Positions 1,714 to 10,856 of a DNA stretch of 11,329 nt are shown here, piece by piece. The translations under genes and the position numbers were made by a program. The DNA lies in IMG/VR virus record IMGVR_UViG_2778261360_000002, positions 1-11,329 of that record. One strand, written 5' to 3'. The stretch comes from a virus. Taxonomy: Duplodnaviria; Heunggongvirae; Uroviricota; Caudoviricetes. The notes under the pieces are model-generated. The model ran no database searches, was not told the origin of the DNA, and saw only the letters and a program-made list of their open reading frames with translations. Position 1 is the first letter of the stretch; every line of letters starts with the position of its first letter.

Positions 1714-2611
<898 letters not shown>

Positions 2612-2769
2612 CTGGATTCTCCTGTCAGTTAGCTTTGGTGGTGTGTGGCAGTTGTAGTCCTGAACGAAAACACCCCGCGATTGGCACATTGGCAGCTAAT
2701 CCGGAATCGCACTTCCGGCCAATGCTTCGTTTCGTATCATACACCCCAAAGCCTTCTGCTTTGAATGCT

Positions 2770-2800
2770 GCCCTTTTTCAGGGCTTAATTTTTAAGAGCA
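2770..2800 (-). promoter_or_regulatory. nutL: nutL (boxB GCCCTGAAAAAGGGC at 2770-2784, boxA-like TGCTCTTAA at 2792-2800, both on the minus strand)
   Basis: The boxB hairpin sequence is read directly from the reverse complement; boxA precedes boxB on the leftward transcript, upstream of N. Confidence 0.8.
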
Positions 2801-2844
2801 TCACCTTCATGGTGGTCAGTGCGTCCTGCTGATGGTTTAAAATT

Positions 2845-2912
2845 ACAAGAAAGATTGTATATTGTAAACAAGAAATATTGTAAAAAGAGGTGTGCAAAAC
2901 AAACTCCATTGT
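2845..2912. promoter_or_regulatory. 434-type OL operator cluster overlapping pL: 14-bp ACAA-N6-TTGT sites at 2845-2858, 2868-2881, 2899-2912
   Basis: Three 14-mers with the phage 434 operator half-sites ACAA/TTGT (acaagaaagattgt, acaagaaatattgt, acaaactccattgt) between nutL and the immunity genes. Confidence 0.75.
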
Positions 2913-2962
2913 TTTTAAACGGAAAATAGTTTGTTTTTTGGTTATTGAGATTGAGGTGGGGA

Positions 2963-4315
<1,353 letters not shown>

Positions 4316-4323
4316 GACATTCC

Positions 4324-4355
4324 CGTTCTTACACATCCCCGCCCTGAAAAAGGGC
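4324..4355 (+). promoter_or_regulatory. nutR: nutR (boxA-like CGTTCTTAC at 4324-4332, boxB GCCCTGAAAAAGGGC at 4341-4355), followed by the tR1 region
   Basis: Exact boxB hairpin sequence immediately downstream of cro, as in lambda. Confidence 0.8.
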
Positions 4356-4404
4356 ATCCAATTAAACCACACCTATGGTGTATGCATTTATTTGCATACA
4401 TTCA

Positions 4405-4460
4405 ATTAATTGTTATCTAAGGAAATACTTACATATGGTTCGTGCAAACAAACGCAACGA
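4405..4460 (-). promoter_or_regulatory. pRE region with CII-binding direct repeats TTGC-N6-TTGC (minus strand, plus coordinates 4444-4457) overlapping the cII 5' end
   Basis: Plus strand gcaaacaaacgcaa is the reverse complement of TTGCGTTTGTTTGC. Position at the cII start matches lambda pRE architecture. Confidence 0.65.
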
Positions 4461-4728
4461 GGCTCTACGAATCGAGAGTGCGTTGCTTAACAAAATCGCA
4501 ATGCTTGGAACTGAGAAGACAGCGGAAGCTGTGGGAGTTGATAAGTCGCAGATCAGCAGGTGGAAGAGAGACTGGATTCCAAAGTTCTCAATGCTGCTTG
4601 CTGTTCTTGAATGGGGTGTCGTTGACGACGACATGGCTCGATTGGCGCGACAAGTTGCTGCGATTCTCACCAATAAAAAACGCCCGGCGGCAACCGAGCG
4701 TTCTGAACAAATCCAGATGGAGTTCTGA
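4435..4728 (+). CDS. cII: CII transcriptional activator (97 aa)
   Basis: MVRANKRNEALRIESALLNKIAMLGTEKTAEAVGVDKSQISRWKRDWIPKFSMLLAVLEWGVVDDDMARLARQVAAILTNKKRPAATERSEQIQMEF matches lambda CII. The true start is the internal Met of the track ORF. Confidence 0.9.
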   Translation: MVRANKRNEALRIESALLNKIAMLGTEKTAEAVGVDKSQISRWKRDWIPKFSMLLAVLEWGVVDDDMARLARQVAAILTNKKRPAATERSEQIQMEF

Positions 4729-4750
4729 GGTCATTACTGGATCAATCCAC
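4674..4750 (-). ncRNA. oop: oop antisense RNA (about 77 nt) covering the cII 3' end, with intrinsic terminator
   Basis: Minus-strand sequence from about 4750 down to the U-tract at about 4675 matches lambda oop RNA as I recall it (…CCAGUAAUGACCUCAGAACUCCAUCUGGAUUUGUUCAGAACGCUCGGUUGCCGCCGGGCGUUUUUU). Confidence 0.75.
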
Positions 4751-4760
4751 AGGAGTCATT

Positions 4761-5660
4761 ATGACAAATACAGCAAAAATACTCAACTTCTGCAGAGGTA
4801 ACTTTGCCAAACAGGAGCGTAATGTGGCAGATCTCGATGATGGTTACGCCAGACTATCAAATATGCTGCTTGAGGCTTATTCAGGCGCAGATCTGACCAA
4901 GCGACAGTTTAAAGTGCTGCTTGCCATTCTGCGTAAAACCTATGGGTGGAATAAACCAATGGACAGAATCACCGATTCTCAACTTAGCGAGATTACAAAG
5001 TTACCCGTCAAACGGTGCAATGAAGCCAAGTTAGAACTCGTCAGAATGAATATTATCAAGCAACAATGCGGCATGTTTGGACCAAATAAAAACATCTCAG
5101 AATGGTGTATCCCTCAAAACGAGGGAAAATCCCCTAAAACGAGGGATAAAACATCCCTCAAATTGGGGGATTGCTATCCCTCAAAACAGGGGGACACAAA
5201 AGACACTATTACAAAAGAAAAAAGAAAAGATTATTCGTCCGAGAATTCTGGCGAATCCTCTGACCAGCCAGAAAACGATCTTTCTGTGGTTAAACCGGAT
5301 GCTGCAATTCAGAGCGGCAGCAAGTGGGGGACAGCAGAAGACCTGACCGCCGCAGAGTGGATGTTTGACATGGTGAAGACTATCGCACCATCAGCCAGAA
5401 AACCGAATTTTGCTGGGTGGGCTAACGATATCCGCCTGATGCGTGAACGTGACGGACGCAACCATCGCGACATGTGTGTACTGTTCCGCTGGGCATGCCA
5501 GGACAACTTCTGGTCCGGTAACGTGCTTAGCCCGGCCAAACTCCGCGACAAGTGGACCCAGCTCGAAATCAACCGTAACAAGCAACAGGCAGCCGTGACA
5601 GCCAGCAAACCAAAACTCGACTTGACAAACACAGACTGGATTTACGGGGTGGATCTATGA
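4761..5660 (+). CDS. O: Replication initiator O (299 aa)
   Basis: MTNTAKILNFCRGNFAKQERNVADLDDGYARLSNMLLEAY... matches lambda O; the gene contains the ori iterons. Confidence 0.9.
   Translation: MTNTAKILNFCRGNFAKQERNVADLDDGYARLSNMLLEAYSGADLTKRQFKVLLAILRKTYGWNKPMDRITDSQLSEITKLPVKRCNEAKLELVRMNIIKQQCGMFGPNKNISEWCIPQNEGKSPKTRDKTSLKLGDCYPSKQGDTKDTITKEKRKDYSSENSGESSDQPENDLSVVKPDAAIQSGSKWGTAEDLTAAEWMFDMVKTIAPSARKPNFAGWANDIRLMRERDGRNHRDMCVLFRWACQDNFWSGNVLSPAKLRDKWTQLEINRNKQQAAVTASKPKLDLTNTDWIYGVDL
5110..5240. repeat. ori-lambda: four about 19-bp iterons (ATCCCTCAAAACGAGGGA-type, about 5110-5195) followed by an A/T-rich unwinding region (about 5196-5240) inside O
   Basis: Four tandem copies of the tccctcaaaac-N-ggga motif are visible, then aaagacactattacaaaagaaaaaagaaaagattatt. 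Confidence 0.85.
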
Positions 5661-6358
5661 AAAACATCGCCGCACAGATGGTTAACTTTGACCGTGAGCA
5701 GATGCGTCGGATCGCCAACAACATGCCGGAACAGTACGACGAAAAGCCTCAGGTACAGCAGGTAGCGCAGATCATCAACGGTGTGTTCAGCCAGTTACTG
5801 GCAACTTTCCCGGCGAGCCTGGCTAACCGTGACCAGAACGAACTGAACGAAATCCGCCGCCAGTGGGTTCTGGCTTTCCGGGAAAACGGGATCACCACAA
5901 TGGAACAGGTTAACGCAGGAATGCGCGTAGCCCGTCGGCAGAATCGACCATTTCTGCCATCACCCGGGCAGTTTGTTGCATGGTGCCGGGAAGAAGCATC
6001 CGTTATCGCCGGACTGCCAAACGTCAGCGAGCTGGTTGATATGGTTTACGAGTATTGCCGGAAGCGAGGCCTGTATCCGGATGCGGAGTCTTATCCGTGG
6101 AAATCAAACGCGCACTACTGGCTGGTTACCAACCTGTATCAGAACATGCGGGCCAATGCGCTTACTGATGCGGAATTACGCCGTAAGGCCGCAGATGAGC
6201 TTGTCCATATGACTGCGAGAATTAACCGTGGTGAGGCGATCCCTGAACCAGTAAAACAACTTCCTGTCATGGGCGGTAGACCTCTAAATCGTGTTCAGGC
6301 GCTGGCGAAGATCGCAGAAATTAAAGCTAAGTTCGGACTGAAAGGAGCAAGTCTATGA
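5657..6358 (+). CDS. P: Replication protein P (DnaB helicase loader, 233 aa)
   Basis: MKNIAAQMVNFDREQMRRIANNMPEQYDEKPQVQQVAQIINGVFSQ... matches lambda P; ATGA overlap with the O stop. Confidence 0.9.
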   Translation: MKNIAAQMVNFDREQMRRIANNMPEQYDEKPQVQQVAQIINGVFSQLLATFPASLANRDQNELNEIRRQWVLAFRENGITTMEQVNAGMRVARRQNRPFLPSPGQFVAWCREEASVIAGLPNVSELVDMVYEYCRKRGLYPDAESYPWKSNAHYWLVTNLYQNMRANALTDAELRRKAADELVHMTARINRGEAIPEPVKQLPVMGGRPLNRVQALAKIAEIKAKFGLKGASL

Positions 6359-6645
6359 CGGGCAAAGAGGCAATTATTCATTATCTGGAGACGCACAAGA
6401 GCTTCTGTGCGCCGGACGTTGCCGCGCTAACAGGCGCAACAGTAACCAGCATAAATCAGGCTGCGGCTAAAATGGCACGGGCAGGTCTTCTGGTTATCGA
6501 AGGTAAGGTCTGGCGAACGGTGTATTACCGGTTTGCTACCAAGGAAGAACGGGAAGGAAAGATGAGCACGAACCTAATTTTTAAGGAGTGTCGCCAGAGT
6601 GCCGCGATGAAACGGGTATTGGCGGTATATGGAGTTAAAAGATGA
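6355..6645 (+). CDS. ren: Ren (protection from Rex exclusion, 96 aa)
   Basis: MTGKEAIIHYLETHKSFCAPDVAALTGATVTSINQAAAKMARAGLLVIEGKVWRTVYYRFATKEEREGKMSTNLIFKECRQSAAMKRVLAVYGVKR matches lambda Ren; ATGA overlap with the P stop. Confidence 0.85.
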   Translation: MTGKEAIIHYLETHKSFCAPDVAALTGATVTSINQAAAKMARAGLLVIEGKVWRTVYYRFATKEEREGKMSTNLIFKECRQSAAMKRVLAVYGVKR

Positions 6646-6669
6646 CCATCTACATCACTGAGCTAATAA

Positions 6670-6700
6670 CAGGCCTGCTGGTAATCGCAGGCCTTTTTAT
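6670..6700 (+). terminator. tR2 intrinsic terminator between ren and ninB
   Basis: caGGCCTGCtggtaatcGCAGGCCttttta: 8-bp stem, 8-nt loop, T-tract. Confidence 0.8.
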
Positions 6701-6718
6701 TTGGGGGAGAGGGAAGTC

Positions 6719-7159
6719 ATGAAAAAACTAACCTTTGAAATTCGATCTCCAGCACATCAGCAGAACGCTATTCACGCAGTACAGCAAATCCTTCCAGACC
6801 CAACCAAACCAATCGTAGTAACCATTCAGGAACGCAACCGCAGCTTAGACCAGAATCGAAAGCTTTGGGCTTGCCTTGGTGACGTCTCTCGTCAGGTTGA
6901 ATGGCATGGTCGCTGGCTGGATGCAGAAAGCTGGAAGTGTGTGTTTACCGCAGCATTAAAGCAGCAGGATGTTGTTCCTAACCTTGCCGGGAATGGCTTT
7001 GTGGTAATAGGCCAGTCAACCAGCAGGATGCGTGTAAGCGAATTTGCGGAGCTATTAGAGCTTATACAGGCATTCGGTACAGAGCGTGGCGTTAAGTGGT
7101 CAGACGAAGCGCGACTGGCTCTGGAATGGAAAGCGCGATGGGGAGACAGGGCGGCATGA
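6719..7159 (+). CDS. ninB: NinB (Orf family recombination mediator, 146 aa)
   Basis: From the internal Met: [84 protein letters not shown]... matches lambda NinB. Confidence 0.85.
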
Positions 7160-7338
7160 GACGACAGCGACGAAGTTTCACCGACATCATCTGCGAAAAC
7201 TGCAAATACCTTCCAACGAAACGCTCCAGAAATAAACGCAAGCCAATCCCAAAAGAATCTGACGTAAAAACCTTCAACTACACGGCTCACCTGTGGGATA
7301 TCCGGTGGCTAAGACATCGTGCGAGGAAAACAAGGTGA
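7156..7338 (+). CDS. ninE: NinE (60 aa)
   Basis: The internal Met of the track ORF gives [60 protein letters not shown], matching lambda NinE. The ATGA overlap with the ninB stop implies ninC and ninD are absent here. Confidence 0.85.
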
Positions 7339-7424
7339 TTGACGCGATGATTTATTCGGGGCTATATTCCTCACGCGCCAGCAAAATCTGGCGTCGGGAT
7401 TAGCACCCCGGATATCGAAACGGT

Positions 7425-7450
7425 GCATAACCGCGCTGGCGGTTTTTTTA
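7425..7450 (+). terminator. Candidate intrinsic terminator within the ninE-ant intergenic leader
   Basis: gcataaCCGCgctgGCGGtttttttatgc: short GC stem plus T8, flanked by the gcataa/ttatgc inverted repeat. Confidence 0.45.
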
Positions 7451-7613
7451 TGCGCTAAGCACAGTCACATTCGCGATTTATGGCGGGCTGTGTGGGGGAG
7501 CCGAAAGGCTCGCCGGATGTTTCGACCGGTAGTGCTAACCCCGCACAGTTCGCCACCACGATGATTAGCACCTGACGGTGGCGAGGTAAAAATTATCGAA
7601 ACGCGAGGTCATT

Positions 7614-8291
7614 ATGGCTGTTCAAATTTCTGTCGAAAACCTTTCCCCTGTTACCTATAACCAGATCCCCGTAATTACTACTGAACTGTTGGCTCACCTT
7701 TACGGAACAAAAATCAAAAACATTTCTGATAACTTTCTGAACAACACGACGCGATTCATGCCCGGAAAGCATTACTTTAAAATTGAAAAAAACGAATTAC
7801 GCGAGTTTAAGAACAGACCCGAAACAATCGGGTTAGTTGGTAAAAATGCCCGCGCCCTCATCCTCTGGACAGAACGCGGCGCAGCCCGTCACGCAAAAAT
7901 GCTCGAAACCGATCAGGCGTGGGAAGTGTTCGAAAAACTGGAAGACTGCTATTTCAGCCAGTGCGAGAAAAATACTGGCAAACAAGAGAAGAAGCCCAAC
8001 GGGCTTTCCGCAAAAGAAACAGACAGCCTTGTATGGCTGTGGGATTATGCCAACCGCTCACAGGCATTGTTCCGTGAGTTGTATCCCGCATTAAAACTGA
8101 TTCAGTCTGGCTATTCCGGCATATGCTACGACTACGGTCATGAGTTCTCGTATGTTATTGGAATGGCGAGAGACGTTTTAATTAATCACACACGAGATGT
8201 TGATATCAATGAGCCAGACGGACCAACGAACCTTCTGGCATGGGAAAGGCTTAAGAACAAAGAATTGCCGCCTTCACTGCATCGCTACTGA
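7614..8291 (+). CDS. Antirepressor-like phage regulatory protein (225 aa; N-terminal domain resembles the antirepressor/ORF6N-type fold), nin-region moron
   Basis: SD GAGGT 5 nt before the ATG. N-terminal region ...[38 protein letters not shown]...[34 protein letters not shown] is typical of phage antirepressor N-terminal domains by recollection only. Moderately AT-rich. Followed by a strong terminator. Confidence 0.6.
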
Positions 8292-8309
8292 CAATTGACA
8301 ACTTAACAA

Positions 8310-8332
8310 ACCCAGCTTCGGCTGGGTTTTTT
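8310..8332 (+). terminator. Intrinsic terminator after the antirepressor-like gene
   Basis: aCCCAGCttcgGCTGGGtttttt: 6-7-bp stem, tetraloop, T6. Confidence 0.8.
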
Positions 8333-8365
8333 ATTGCTGAATTTTCAATGTGAGAGGACATGACA

Positions 8366-9088
8366 ATGAATGAGCTGATAAATAGCAATGCCATCAAAAT
8401 GACAAGCATTGAAATCGCTGAGTTGGTGGGAAGTCGTCATGACAAGGTGAAACAATCCATTGAACGACTGGCTGTTCGAGGTGTGATCCGAAATCCCCCA
8501 ATGGTGGTTTTCGAAAAAATCAATAACTTAGGATTACTTCGTGGCGTAGAGGCTTACGTTTTTGAGGGCGAACAAGGTAAGCGCGACAGCATTATTGTCG
8601 TTGCCCAGTTGTCGCCGGAATTCACCGCTCGCCTTGTTGACCGCTGGCGAGAACTCGAAGGGGCAACCGCGAAAATACCACAAACCTTTTCTGAGGCATT
8701 GCGCCTTGCGGCCGACCTTGAAGACCAGAAGGCTGAACTGGAGAAACAGCTTGCTCTCGCAGCACCTAAAGTTGAGTTTGCCGATCGCGTTGGCGAGTCC
8801 AGCGGAATTTTGATTGGAAACTTTGCAAAGGTTGTTGGTATTGGTCCAAACAAACTGTTTGCGTGGATGCGCGATCACAAAATCCTTATTGCTTCAGGCT
8901 CCCGGCGCAATGTGCCAATGCAGGAATATATGGATCGTGGCTATTTCACAGTGAAAGAAACAGCGGTCAACACAAATCACGGAATACAGATATCGTTCAC
9001 CACAAAAATCACCGGGCGTGGTCAACAGTGGCTGACCAGAAAGCTGCTCGATAACGGAATGCTGAAAGTAACAGGGGAGGCTGCTTAA
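8366..9088 (+). CDS. Rha-family phage regulatory protein with C-terminal KilA-C/antirepressor-type domain (Roi-like); start at 8366 preferred, 8360 possible
   Basis: N-terminus ...[40 protein letters not shown] is a Rha-type (Phage_pRha) signature. The C-terminal half ...[38 protein letters not shown]... resembles the KilA-C/Ant C-terminal domain. SD GAGAGGA is 7 nt before the ATG at 8366. Confidence 0.7.
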
Positions 9089-9693
9089 TGGCTAAACCAG
9101 CGCGAAGGAAATGCAAAATATGCAAGGAATGTTTTCACCCGGCATTCTCAAATCAGTGGTGGTGCTGCCCGGAACACGGAACTCAATTAGCACTCGAACG
9201 ACGAAGTAAAGAACGCGAAAAAGCGGAAAAAGCAGCAGAGAAGAAACGACGACGAGAGGAGCAGAAACAGAAAGATAAACTGAAGATTCGAAAACTCGCC
9301 TTAAAGCCCCGCAGTTACTGGATTAAACAAGCCCAACAAGCCGTAAACGCCTTCGTCAGAGAAAGAGACCGCGACTTACCATGTATCTCGTGCGGAACGC
9401 TCACGTCTGCTCAGTGGGATGCCGGACATTACCGGACAACTGCTGCGGCACCTCAACTCCGATTTGATGAACGCAATATTCACAAGCAATGCGTGGTGTG
9501 CAACCAGCACAAAAGCGGAAATCTCGTTCCGTATCGCGTCGAACTGATTAGCCGCATCGGGCAGGAAGCAGTAGACGAAATCGAATCAAACCATAACCGC
9601 CATCGCTGGACTGTCGAAGAGTGCAGGGCCATCAAGGCGAAGTATCAGCAGAAACTTAAAGACCTGCGAAACAGCAGAAGTGAGGCCGCATGA
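9088..9693 (+). CDS. ninG: NinG (Rap) structure-specific recombination endonuclease (201 aa)
   Basis: [89 protein letters not shown]... matches lambda NinG/Rap. Confidence 0.85.
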
Positions 9694-9884
9694 CGTTCAC
9701 AGTAAAAACCATTCCTGACATGCTCGTTGAGGCATATGAAAATCAGACCGAGGTAGCCAGAATACTGAACTGCAATCGTGCCACAGTCAGAAAATACATT
9801 GGCGATAAAGAAGGGAAAAAGCACGCCGTCGTCAATGGCGTCCTTATGGTTCATCGCGGATGGGGTAAAGATACTGATGCGTGA
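9690..9884 (+). CDS. ninH: NinH (64 aa)
   Basis: [58 protein letters not shown]... resembles lambda NinH; ATGA overlap with the ninG stop. Confidence 0.8.
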
Positions 9885-10311
9885 TATCCGGCAGGTTCTT
9901 GAGCGCTGGGGTGCATGGGCGGCAAATAACCATGAGGATGTTACATGGTCGCCCATTGCTGCCGGATTTAAGGGACTGATCCCCGAAAAAGTAAAATCAC
10001 GTCCACAGTGTTGTGACGATGACGCGATGATTATATGCGGGTGTATGGCTCGCCTTAACAGGAACAACAGCGATCTGCATGACTTGCTGGTTGATTATTA
10101 CGTGTTGGGGGAGACGTTCATGGCGCTGGCACGGAAACATGGGTGCTCTGACACCTGTATAGGTAAACGCCTTCACAAAGCGGAGGGGATTGTTGAAGGC
10201 ATGCTGATGATGCTGGGAGTGAGGCTTGAGATGGATCGGTATGTTGAGCGTGAATTGCCGGGAGGGAGAACCTCTGTATTTTATCAGCGAAAAAATAGTT
10301 TACGATCGTAA
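9877..10311 (+). CDS. Q: Late-gene antiterminator Q, non-lambda type (phage 21/82, QuuD-like family, 144 aa)
   Basis: [60 protein letters not shown]... resembles E. coli prophage QuuD-type Q proteins by recollection. Occupies the Q position after ninH. The track ORF's N-terminal extension (start 9778) overlaps ninH and is rejected. Confidence 0.7.
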
Positions 10312-10591: not shown

Positions 10592-10690
10592 GTATCCGTT
10601 CAACAGGAATGTTACATACCTCACAATTAAGTCAGTTGAATGTTGTCTGCCCGGATGAGAATTTGTTAGAAAAAAACTGCATGGTGAATC

Positions 10691-10732
10691 CCCCTGAGCG
10701 GAGGGGCGACTGGTGACGGTATAATCTCTGAT
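10691..10732 (+). promoter_or_regulatory. Candidate strong sigma70 promoter (perfect TATAAT at 10720-10725) with upstream palindrome CCCCTgagcggAGGGG (10691-10706); possible pR'-type late promoter
   Basis: Consensus -10 hexamer read directly; the -35 is weak, and the palindrome sits where a -35 or activator site would be. Confidence 0.4.
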
Positions 10733-10825
10733 TATCAAAACGAGAATGACGAGGGTTTAGTGGCACCGGGCTGAACTCACCGGGAGGCACCCGGCACCAT
10801 GCAATGGCACATAGCGCCACTCTCC

Positions 10826-10850
10826 AGCCCCTCTCCGGAGGGGCTTTCTT
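10826..10850 (+). terminator. Terminator-like hairpin AGCCCCTCtccgGAGGGGCT followed by a U-rich tract (TTCTT)
   Basis: 8-bp stem with tetraloop; about 115 nt downstream of the TATAAT promoter. The U-tract is interrupted, so efficiency is uncertain. Confidence 0.4.
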
Positions 10851-10856
10851 ATGGAC

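Follow-up and report, generated by a model that had tools for sequence, protein, structure and literature searches.

The genes designated here ant and roi are already described lambdoid-phage accessory genes, lying side by side at the position of ninF in lambda. They are two separable mosaic units, rather than one module. Homology breaks delimit a self-contained cassette of approximately 1 kb, composed of a promoter, an IsrK-like small RNA, a C4 antisense RNA, ant, and a terminator, after which roi stands separately. As a whole, the model of a C4/IsrK-controlled ant cassette (approximately 7339–8335) followed by a separate roi is considered highly probable. The two genes, their position, and the regulatory RNAs are already known from GenBank annotations, Pfam, PHROGs, and Rfam. 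All coordinates are those of the window, being the whole 11,329 nt stretch of viral DNA that was analysed.

DNA comparison with lambda imm434 identified homology over 2288–7159, 7163–7343, and 9088–9871 of the window. There is therefore no ninC or ninD between ninB and ninE, and 7344–9087 takes the place of ninF. This agrees with the preliminary description, which had reported the loss of ninC and ninD and the occupation of the ninF site by two rightward ORFs between ninE and ninG; the coordinates it gave for both ORFs are exact. The flanking genes were assigned from Pfam matches (Table 1). The start of ninE has been set at 7156 because the Pfam match begins only at residue 21 of the longer ORF. 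The roi stop codon overlaps the ninG ATG (TAATG). The prophage encodes an N of the lambda type, which would allow read-through, and annotation of the 434 CI indicates that the adjacent hex gene shields this repressor from RecA.

Table 1. Features of the ninB to Q interval of the window.
Feature	Position	Strand	Description
NinB	6701–7159		Pfam-based flank assignment
NinE	7156–7338		60 aa; inside ORF 7096–7338
Cassette promoter	7339–7368	+	-35 TTGACG 7339–7344; 18 bp spacer; -10 TATATT 7363–7368
IsrK-like small RNA (a1/b1 target element)	7375–7449	+	Two hairpins and a Rho-independent terminator
a1	7400–7406		TTAGCAC; loop of IsrK hairpin 2
b1	7415–7421		TCGAAAC; in IsrK-like RNA
C4 antisense RNA	7476–7560	+	Rfam C4 (RF01695), 75.1 bits against gathering score 45
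31-codon ORF	7480–7575	+	Overlaps C4 and a2; positional equivalent of Gifsy-1 orf45
b'	7519–7525		GTTTCGA; C4 hairpin-2 loop
a'	7532–7538		GTGCTAA; C4 internal single strand
a2	7565–7571	+	TTAGCAC; downstream C4 target site
b2	7596–7602	+	TCGAAAC; downstream C4 target site
ant Shine-Dalgarno	7606–7609	+	GAGG; between b2 and ATG at 7614
ant	7614–8291	+	ORF, 225 aa; ORF6N and P22 antirepressor C-domain
Intrinsic terminator closing ant cassette	8308–8335	+	Stem 8308–8316/8321–8329; loop TTCG; T-run to ~8335
roi	8360–9088	+	ORF, 242 aa; Rha-like winged helix (predicted) and KilAC
NinG	9088–9693		Pfam-based flank assignment
NinH	9690–9884		Pfam-based flank assignment
Q	9778–10311		Pfam-based flank assignment

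The product of the first gene had been called antirepressor-like and the domain searches support this. Pfam ORF6N matches residues 12–96 (72.7 bits) and P22_AR_C matches residues 125–197 (88.3 bits against a cutoff of 22.4), with the full model covered. In PHROGs the best family is phrog_377, 'anti-repressor Ant' (E = 1.6e-80). Ant is 95% identical to its Phi24B counterpart; residues 122–225 have 86.5% identity to P22 Ant and residues 1–124 have 87% identity to Gifsy-1 AnrP. No match for either Ant or Roi is present in NCBIfam, and searching the PDB by sequence gave no relative of known structure for the two proteins. Phi24B 24B_1, or d_ant, was set aside, being a different gene located downstream of R in the lysis region.

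The second gene had been described as encoding a Rha-family protein with a KilA-C-type C-terminal domain, and it is the C-terminal part of that assignment that stands. ANT/KilAC (PF03374) matches residues 128–230 with 114.4 bits against a threshold of 25.3, this domain being common to Roi, P1 Ant1, and KilA. Phage_pRha (PF09669) matches residues 14–100 along profile positions 1–90 of 91 (E = 8e-6), yet its 26.8 bits fall below the gathering score of 29.9, so that formally the Rha assignment fails. The same sub-threshold match (25–27 bits against 29.9) is seen in every Roi orthologue, including those of HK022 and Phi24B, and likewise in the D6 relative, the N-terminal domain of which passes the winged-helix model HTH_24. 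Judged by these profiles, the N-terminal domain of Roi appears to be Rha-like in fold and length and is not a formal member of Pfam Phage_pRha. The protein is an orthologue of HK022 Roi, at 83.9% identity over 241 aa, and is 88% identical to Phi24B Roi; it belongs to phrog_63 (E = 6.7e-95), and 44 phage records contain a protein at least 99% identical to it.

Within roi, at 8518–8530, there is an IHF consensus, AATCAATAACTTA. This is the sole match to WATCAANNNNTTR in the window, a count that is not significant, as at least one match is generated in 96 of 200 shuffles. The consensus is at the same position of the gene in HK022, VT2-Sakai, and PhiR12_2. The Phi24B roi allele does not have an internal IHF consensus; that of the window is HK022/VT2-Sakai-like. 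Clerget and Boccard, in 1996, are said to have found that Roi binds its own gene beside an IHF site, and HK022 Roi is reportedly associated with DNA binding and with inhibition of lytic growth in IHF-deficient hosts. Roi is most likely a separate DNA-binding protein that is linked to IHF.

The cassette promoter has 10 of 12 matches to the consensus in a consensus scan, with a predicted transcription start at approximately 7375, the position to which the 5' end of Gifsy-1 IsrK aligns. Its -10 core is invariant in the 10 aligned leaders and the promoter aligns with the annotated P1 promoter P1c4/P51b, which has a -10 of TATAGT. LexA boxes and 434 operators were sought as possible SOS or CI inputs, and none is present within one mismatch near 7339–7368; the 434 operators are found only at OL and OR. 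The small RNA that follows the promoter matches Rfam isrK (RF01394) with 76.6 bits against a gathering score of 50 and, over 7362–7414, Rfam c4-a1b1 (RF03163) with 50.6 bits against 46.7. Its terminator has a stem at 7429–7444 and a T-run at 7443–7449. The terminator closing the cassette folds with -15.1 kcal/mol (z = -3.74), a stability reached by none of 200 shuffles, and encloses the 8310–8332 terminator noted in the preliminary description. There is no match to isrJ in the window, unlike in Gifsy-1.

The structured leader of ant that had been noted previously is not a chance structure. According to the RNA family models and the fold, it is seen as a P1-type C4/IsrK element with its own promoter, which also fits the earlier proposal that leader and terminator indicate regulation independent of pR. 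C4 has the shape of a long basal stem around two hairpins (-49.1 kcal/mol, z = -5.95), and the mature RNA is predicted to span approximately 7482–7557 by homology with P1 c4, using the coordinates in the P1 record. The trio of isrK, c4-a1b1, and C4 is also present in Phi24B, VT2-Sakai, PhiR12_2, P1, D6, Gifsy-1, and eight further phages.

Both a' and b' have an exact 7 nt complement upstream and downstream of C4 (at 7400, 7415, 7565, and 7596), in the P1 order with a before b. There are also 10 nt direct repeats, GATTAGCACC at 7398 and 7563 and TATCGAAACG at 7413 and 7594. In 11 of the 13 loci compared, b2 is located 7–16 nt 5' of the first downstream start codon, and the spacing of b2, GAGG, and ATG in the window is the same as in P1 and D6. 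Exact complements were used for the analysis of specificity, RNAduplex of the whole C4 against the flanks being uninformative due to unfolding of the C4 stem. Eight different a' and approximately 11 different b' sequences are found across the loci, each matched by its own four sites, with at least 12 a'/b' combinations among 15 loci. Across 13 loci, the mean longest complement is 6.5–7.9 nt to a locus's own targets versus approximately 4.1–4.3 nt to foreign targets, and no a' cross-match to a foreign target reaches 7 nt. Compensatory changes are present in 12 of the 27 C4 consensus pairs (14 loci).

The 31-codon ORF that overlaps C4 is unlikely to be a gene in this locus. Its stop codon comes 38 nt ahead of the ant ATG, and the two reading frames differ. 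Its AUG belongs to the conserved AUGG found at C4's 5' edge, a motif that P1-type processing would split. Translational coupling is central to both P1 and Gifsy-1; with this arrangement, and with no icd, it cannot operate in the same manner in the window.

The preliminary description had treated ant and roi as a single two-gene module. This does not hold, because HK022 has roi without ant and because homology breaks at 7343/7344 and at 8344/8345. The second break, just past the ant terminator, is a mosaic joint with HK022 and with vB_EcoS_P27. DNA homology with HK022 extends over 8345–9095, and HK022 has neither ant nor C4; vB_EcoS_P27 has an additional ORF between ant and roi, and in Gifsy-1 the cassette is present without roi. 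A total of 541 phage records match, with ant and roi annotated in Stx-type lambdoid phages. Matches to the cassette occur in 1,390 of the 5,426 complete E. coli genomes, and up to six copies of cassette-like sequence are found per genome.

From the observed gene identities, domains, RNA families, complementarities with their covariation, and mosaic boundaries, the following mechanism is proposed. A σ70 promoter homologous to the constitutive c4 promoter of P1 would drive the cassette. Most transcripts would end at the first terminator, generating an IsrK-like RNA of approximately 75 nt with a1 and b1, and those that read through would contain C4, then a2 and b2, then ant, and would end at the second terminator. 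C4 would probably be cut out of the transcript, as in P1, with its a' and b' able to pair with a2 and b2; b2 is immediately next to the ant Shine-Dalgarno, so that translation of ant would be blocked. C4 would thereby keep Ant off in the lysogen, and likewise in any phage of its own C4 type that enters the cell. Carrying the same two sites, the short IsrK RNA may draw C4 away or change the folding of the long transcript, turning ant translation on. Ant would then counteract a CI-type repressor without cleavage, for faster or stronger derepression and expression of late genes (Q, pR'). As roi is behind the cassette terminator, its expression would come mainly from pR transcripts antiterminated by N, and Roi may modulate lytic growth in connection with IHF.

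Repression by C4 is established in P1 and P7. It is most likely that C4 represses ant here, and IsrK probably relieves this repression. In Gifsy-1, IsrK activates anrP and phage induction (PMC4825925). The authors of that study propose that IsrK acts by refolding of the long mRNA, not by titration of processed C4, and IsrK toxicity persisted when STnc1160, the C4 equivalent, was expressed constitutively (PMC4825925), a result that a simple sponge model does not fit. The compensatory mutants reported for Gifsy-1, G28A/C162U and G31A/C159U (PMC4825925), map exactly on the a1:a' pairs of the C4 model. Ant most likely speeds derepression of the prophage, based on the Phi24B ant knockout, in which pR'-lux after norfloxacin was 27–56% of wild type and complementation was obtained in trans (PMC3064807). 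The effect of the Phi24B knockout is modest, and the CI of Phi24B differs from that of this 434-immunity prophage. The behaviour of these relatives presumably extends to this prophage, where Ant would act on the 434-type CI and IsrK would mainly titrate C4. Experiments of the kind proposed in the preliminary description have thus largely been done in relatives (PMC3064807, PMC4825925), and its finding is correct, not new.

Near-identical Ant proteins are found with different immunity regions, therefore the target of Ant may not be the cognate CI. Ant could instead be mainly a trans-acting weapon or signal between prophages, inactivating the repressors of others as the Gifsy and Fels antirepressors do. 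The leaders, too, are identical between phages with different immunity (434 type here, Phi24B type elsewhere), E. coli genomes can contain as many as six cassette-like copies, and antirepressor cross-induction is documented in Salmonella (PMC3121763). P22 Ant, which shares the C-terminal domain, acts against heterologous repressors including lambda CI, according to work cited in PMC3064807. The only direct tests in close relatives, those in Phi24B and Gifsy-1, nevertheless show effects on induction of the phage itself, leaving this as a rather doubtful main role for Ant. Such a role is compatible with the C4/IsrK-controlled cassette model. It is very improbable that ant and roi form one operon, with a single transcript and a bipartite antirepressor like P1 Ant1/Ant2, even though they lie next to each other and point the same way in hundreds of Stx phage records and the domains of Roi recur in the C4-controlled Ant of D6 (N-terminal domain 63% identical) and of P1/SJ46 (KilAC). 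A strong intrinsic terminator separates the genes, the mosaic joint at 8344/8345 is where vB_EcoS_P27 has its extra ORF, roi of HK022 is alone with no ant or C4, and the Gifsy-1 cassette does not have roi.

Ant and Roi might also be DNA-binding transcription factors, not antirepressors, with N-terminal domains (ORF6N, Rha-like winged helix) that contact DNA and directly switch phage promoters on or off, for example in the expression of Q. Gifsy-1 AnrP, which shares only ORF6N with the window Ant, raises antQ expression and in GER2 the cargo protein, of 104 aa, has ORF6N only, while Roi is described as a DNA-binding protein in the summary in PMC3430580 and its D6 relative passes HTH_24. However, the effect of AnrP on antQ would follow equally well if repression were relieved, the literature examined contains no evidence of DNA binding by ORF6N, and it is with the classic P22 antirepressor that Ant shares its C-terminal half, at 86.5% identity, making this explanation unlikely. 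A function of ant and roi in anti-phage defence or superinfection exclusion, and not in induction, is scarcely credible. The ORF6N region does match PADLOC candidate system PDC-S05 (E ~1e-6), and accessory ('moron') genes are common in the nin region. The PADLOC matches are weak and reflect a shared domain only, on which ground a defence role was rejected; Roi has no match, and superinfection is unchanged in Phi24B without ant (PMC3064807).

For the favoured model of a C4/IsrK-controlled ant cassette with a separate roi, the coincidence of the IsrK compensatory mutants with a1:a' pairing in the P1 c4 model suggests that the IsrK and C4 literatures describe one mechanism. A broader interpretation, offered tentatively, treats IsrK and C4 as the two parts of a single switch, handled separately in the literature so far: IsrK would be a P1-type C4's a1/b1 decoy in released form, and Gifsy-1 orf45/STnc1160 would be C4. 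The many C4 types would make up a second prophage immunity network, based on RNA, and would decide which prophage makes antirepressor in polylysogenic E. coli. In this prophage, a 434-immunity phage would thereby gain a means of induction independent of RecA. Cassettes of this kind affect the induction of Stx phages, so that the C4 specificity type could be relevant to toxin release by strains with multiple prophages; the literature search found nothing directly relevant on RecA-independent Stx2a antirepressors. The window itself is of little significance, its relatives having been studied experimentally (P1/P7 c4, Gifsy-1 IsrK/AnrP, Phi24B Ant, and HK022 Roi). The practical gain is in annotation, as the spacer between ninE and ant is no empty leader and contains a small RNA and an antisense RNA together with their promoter. 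Gene callers omit these elements or mis-call them as small ORFs, such as vb_24B_17, VT2-Sakai orf34, and Gifsy-1 orf45.

Among the closest known arrangements is the ant-roi pair of the Stx phages Phi24B (vB_EcoP_24B), Min27, VT2-Sakai, JLK-2012, and Lahn2, which have the same genes in the same order and at the same position between ninE and ninG. The leader in the window is 100% identical to that of JLK-2012 and 99.7% identical to that of Stx2a_F451. The prophage differs from the Stx phages in its 434-type immunity and its lambda O and P; in addition, no DNA methylase separates ninB from ninE, and neither tRNAs nor stx follow Q.

The immI region of P1 and P7 (c4, icd, ant1/ant2) is like the cassette in its order of promoter, a1/b1, C4 fold, and a2/b2, in the location of b2 at the ribosome binding site, and in having an antirepressor as cargo. 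Across loci, the specificities of loop and target also co-vary, as is the case between P1 and P7. In the window there is no icd and ant itself is directly after b2; among the loci compared, icd (73–74 aa) is found only in P1 and D6. Nor does the window have the C1 operator, Op51 in P1, or the second promoter, only the P1c4/P51b-like promoter being conserved. Other differences from P1 are the intrinsic terminator between b1 and C4, which releases the short IsrK RNA, a cargo of ORF6N and P22_AR_C rather than P1 Ant, and a host that is a lambdoid prophage instead of a plasmid prophage. The isrK-orf45-anrP-isrJ locus of Gifsy-1 (Hershko-Shalev et al. 2016, PMC4825925) shares the promoter, IsrK, C4 (STnc1160/orf45'), ORF6N protein, and closing terminator. 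The Gifsy-1 cassette is downstream of Q, whereas that of the window is 1.5 kb upstream of Q. The C-terminal half of AnrP is different, without P22_AR_C, and the C4 specificity type is not the same, with an a' of TACGCCAA against AGTGCTAA. The orf45 equivalent in the window is shorter and is not adjacent to ant, so the coupling of orf45 to the antirepressor is not seen.

Roi of HK022 is similar over its full length, has the same two domains, follows ninE in the interval between P and Q, and has the IHF consensus in the same place. HK022 retains a ninF-like ORF, has no ant cassette upstream, and has other genes after roi, where the window has ninG. Ant of the P22 immI region is 86.5% identical over the C-terminal 104 residues, with the P22_AR_C match being full length. 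The N-terminal half of the 225 aa window protein is ORF6N, however, not the P22 N-terminal domain. Control in the window is through C4/IsrK, instead of Arc, Mnt, and the sar RNA, and the gene is in the nin region, flanked by ninE and roi.

The window represents a lambdoid early-right region. Its immunity is that of phage 434, its N, O and P are of lambda type, and ren, ninB and ninE precede ant and roi, with ninG, ninH and Q following them. Alignment with lambda imm434 gave homology at 2288–7159, 7163–7343 and 9088–9871, which indicates that ninC and ninD are missing and that ninF is replaced by 7344–9087. This agrees with the preliminary description, where ninC and ninD were noted as absent and the gene pair was placed between ninE and ninG at the site of ninF. 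The two ORFs that it reported are present with exactly the coordinates listed in the table below.

The genes are adjacent and both on the + strand, as in the single two-gene module proposed earlier, but they do not form one unit. In HK022, roi lies directly after ninE, together with a ninF-like ORF; ant is absent from HK022, and neither isrK nor C4 matches there. Sequence homology between HK022 and the window stops at 7343 and returns at 8345, 15 nt before the roi ATG. At this same joint vB_EcoS_P27 has an extra 133-aa coiled-coil-like ORF (L007 2818–3219) between the ant terminator and roi, for which there is no confident Pfam family, and in Gifsy-1 the ant cassette is present and roi is absent. 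These layouts define 7344–8344 as a discrete mosaic unit, of the "moron" type, carrying a promoter, regulatory RNAs, a gene and a terminator of its own. The strong terminator previously placed after ant was found, with a stem at 8308–8329 and a T-run (z = −3.74). The second unit, independent of the first, is roi. The −35 hexamer of the cassette promoter (7339–7344) spans the mosaic joint, its TTGAC belonging to the lambda/HK022 ninE-flank homology (to 7343) and the cassette-specific sequence starting at 7344.

Features of the ant cassette and roi
Feature	Position	Strand	Details
promoter-like site	7339–7368		TTGACG-18-TATATT
c4-a1b1	7362–7414		Rfam 50.6 bits
isrK	7375–7449		Rfam 76.6 bits
a1	7400–7406		exact complement of a'
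b1	7415–7421		exact complement of b'
C4 antisense RNA	7476–7560		Rfam 75.1 bits
b'	7519–7525		GTTTCGA, in C4
a'	7532–7538		GTGCTAA, in C4
a2	7565–7571		exact complement of a'
b2	7596–7602		exact complement of b'
ant	7614–8291	+	225 aa
roi	8360–9088	+	242 aa

Pfam searches identified ORF6N (72.7 bits) and P22_AR_C (88.3 bits) in Ant, bearing out its description as antirepressor-like. In Roi, which had been called a Rha/KilA-C protein, ANT/KilAC scored 114.4 bits, and Phage_pRha matched at full length but at 26.8 bits, against a cutoff of 29.9; this match is below the Pfam threshold in every Roi orthologue. The PHROGs assignments, phrog_377 for Ant and phrog_63 for Roi, are both labelled anti-repressor Ant. 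Sequence searches found no solved structures for either protein. The ant/roi DNA matched 541 phage records by megablast, 158 of them covering at least 80% of the query at ~94–96% identity, and matching records, including Phi24B, Min27, VT2-Sakai, JLK-2012, Lahn2 and many Stx1a/Stx2a phages, annotate the genes as ant and roi. Identity to Phi24B is 95% for Ant and 88% for Roi. Roi is 83.9% identical over its full length to the original HK022 Roi, and at least 99% identical Roi sequences are present in 44 phage records. Ant is a chimera: residues 1–124 are 87% identical to Gifsy-1 AnrP, and residues 122–225 share 86.5% identity with the C-terminal end of the P22 antirepressor. The 1-kb ant cassette has a match in 1,390 of 5,426 complete E. 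coli genomes, with at least 80% covered in 426 and 100% identity in two. The only exact IHF consensus in the window, a count not significant by itself, is within roi (8518–8530) and occupies the position that it has in the HK022 gene. In HK022, Roi binds inside the roi gene, beside an IHF site, and the location of the consensus fits this.

The 275 bp spacer between ninE and ant contains three Rfam families above gathering scores. Across ten aligned leaders the −10 core of the promoter-like site does not vary, and it falls on the P1 promoter annotated as P1c4 (former P51b); position 7375 of the window lines up with the IsrK 5' end of Gifsy-1. There is no LexA box or 434 operator at the cassette promoter. 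Following the nomenclature of the P1 record, b' denotes the loop of C4 hairpin 2 and a' the single-stranded segment behind that hairpin. Their target sites a1, b1, a2 and b2 lie in 10-nt direct repeats, and b2 is followed by GAGG (7606–7609) and the ant ATG (7614). The structured leader that had suggested independent regulation is therefore an IsrK/C4 element, and that interpretation is supported. A 31-codon ORF (7480–7575) stops 38 nt before ant, in another frame. Within 7546–7590, the basal stem of C4 has a 3' arm, TCGCCACC (7550–7557), that can instead pair with GGTGGCGA (7577–7584), which would put a2 in a hairpin loop. Similar arms can be seen in P1 and Gifsy-1, and the pairing may correspond to the alternative-structure switch reported for Gifsy-1. 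Small CDSs annotated as 'hypothetical protein' overlap IsrK/C4 elements in Phi24B (L001 3188–3256), VT2-Sakai (L002 2796–2969) and vB_EcoS_P27 (L007 1755–1877 and 1948–2091); these are probably mis-called non-coding RNA.

The leader was compared across 15 loci (the window, Phi24B, VT2-Sakai, PhiR12_2, D6, GER2, vB_EcoS_P27, Stx2a_JNE122398, IdasGreatGrand, Stx2_14744, phiV10, Tyrion, phiP27, P1 and Gifsy-1). Among them, 8 different a' and about 11 different b' sequences occur, and each finds its match in the a1, b1, a2 and b2 of its own locus, which sit at conserved positions. In an all-against-all control the longest complement averaged 6.5–7.9 nt for own targets versus about 4.1–4.3 nt for foreign ones, with no a' cross-match reaching 7 nt. 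Compensatory changes are found at 12 of 27 pairs in the C4 stems, while both recognition segments are hypervariable. The first downstream start codon is 7–16 nt after b2 in 11 of 13 loci, the exceptions being Tyrion, where an in-site GTG was picked automatically, and IdasGreatGrand, where no ORF was picked. An antisense RNA that determines specificity would be expected to covary with its targets in this way, as is known for P1 versus P7. E. coli prophages harbour many C4 specificity types side by side. The leader precedes varying cargo: ORF6N with P22_AR_C, ORF6N with another C-domain, ORF6N alone, Bro-N, or icd with a KilAC or Rha-like Ant. In GER2 the C4 cassette adjoins an oppositely oriented HigB-type toxin gene pair (L006 1140–1793), and an Rfam sRNA-Xcc1 match (75.7 bits; L006 2524–2607) lies behind the 104-aa ORF6N-only cargo gene.

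In Gifsy-1 the isrK promoter drives isrK-orf45-anrP as a translationally silent long transcript, IsrK in trans raises anrP translation >100-fold, AnrP raises antQ expression and induces the prophage, and a ~80-nt processed RNA, STnc1160/orf45', accumulates (PMC4825925). A C4 element (Rfam, 69 bits) lies exactly on orf45/STnc1160 (L016 34131–34214, −), and the compensatory pairs G28A/C162U and G31A/C159U of that study correspond to G28-C162 and G31-C159 among the a1:a' base pairs. In Gifsy-1, constitutive STnc1160 failed to counteract IsrK (PMC4825925), which suggests that a simple sponge model may be incomplete. Deletion of the nin-region ant in Phi24B reduced pR'-lux after norfloxacin to 27–56% of wild type and was complemented in trans, with superinfection unaffected (PMC3064807).

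A mechanism may be proposed from the identities, RNA family membership, complementarity, covariation and boundaries observed here, and by analogy with relatives, where C4 repression, IsrK activation and the induction phenotype have been shown. In a lysogen, the constitutive-looking promoter would produce mostly short IsrK RNA and some read-through transcript, from which C4 would pair with a2/b2 and block the ant ribosome binding site. Excess IsrK, presumably through titration, or heavy pR transcription through the region under antitermination by N, which is present in the window, would tip the balance towards Ant. Ant would then counteract CI, its presumed target in this 434-immunity phage, without cleavage, reinforcing derepression and Q-dependent late expression. 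Roi, predicted to be a winged-helix and KilAC DNA-binding protein, is encoded beyond the cassette terminator, and its expression should rely on transcription modified by N.

Just downstream of the 434-type cI, ORF 2963–3439 (−), with no Pfam match, is the counterpart of the imm434 Hex gene, annotated in lambda imm434 as 'repressor protection protein Hex' and said to shield repressor from RecA-dependent proteolysis. With it present, an antirepressor route that bypasses RecA could gain relevance in this phage. A 167-aa ORF (1792–2295, +), also with no Pfam match, is at the lambda ral/sieB position just outside the imm434-homologous segment, and a lambda cIII thermoregulator RNA element is at 1058–1116 (−; Rfam 88.5 bits). 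STnc100 sRNA (10650–10856, +; a strong Rfam match, 166.9 bits) is ~340 nt downstream of Q, with neither tRNA nor stx genes in between, so this lambdoid prophage is not of the Stx type; Phi24B has the element behind its stx region, adjoining AsxR.

The preliminary description is thus confirmed in observation and supported in interpretation, and is refined on three points: the number of units (two), the Rha match (sub-threshold) and the leader (an IsrK/C4 element). ant, roi and the regulatory RNAs all belong to known kinds, and the wide spread of c4 and c4-a1b1 motifs was reported in 2010 (PMC2864571). The one mildly new point is a synthesis that equates IsrK with the a1/b1 element and orf45/STnc1160 with C4; it concerns the family rather than the window itself. 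P1 c4 is neither mentioned nor cited in PMC4825925. The P1/P7 immI c4 system shares its RNA logic with the window but differs in leader ORF and cargo: the P1 immI layout is kept, yet ant itself is behind b2 without an intervening icd. Neither of the leader ORFs on which the P1 and Gifsy-1 models turn is kept in the window: icd is absent, and the 31-codon ORF is in another frame than ant. The Gifsy-1 isrK locus is the same cassette in another position. The ant-roi genes of Stx phages are nearly identical to the window pair; PMC3430580 treats the two genes of these phages together and cites HK022 Roi as implicated in lytic growth. Together with HK022 roi, the Stx-phage genes, the P1/P7 system and the Gifsy-1 locus are the closest relatives.
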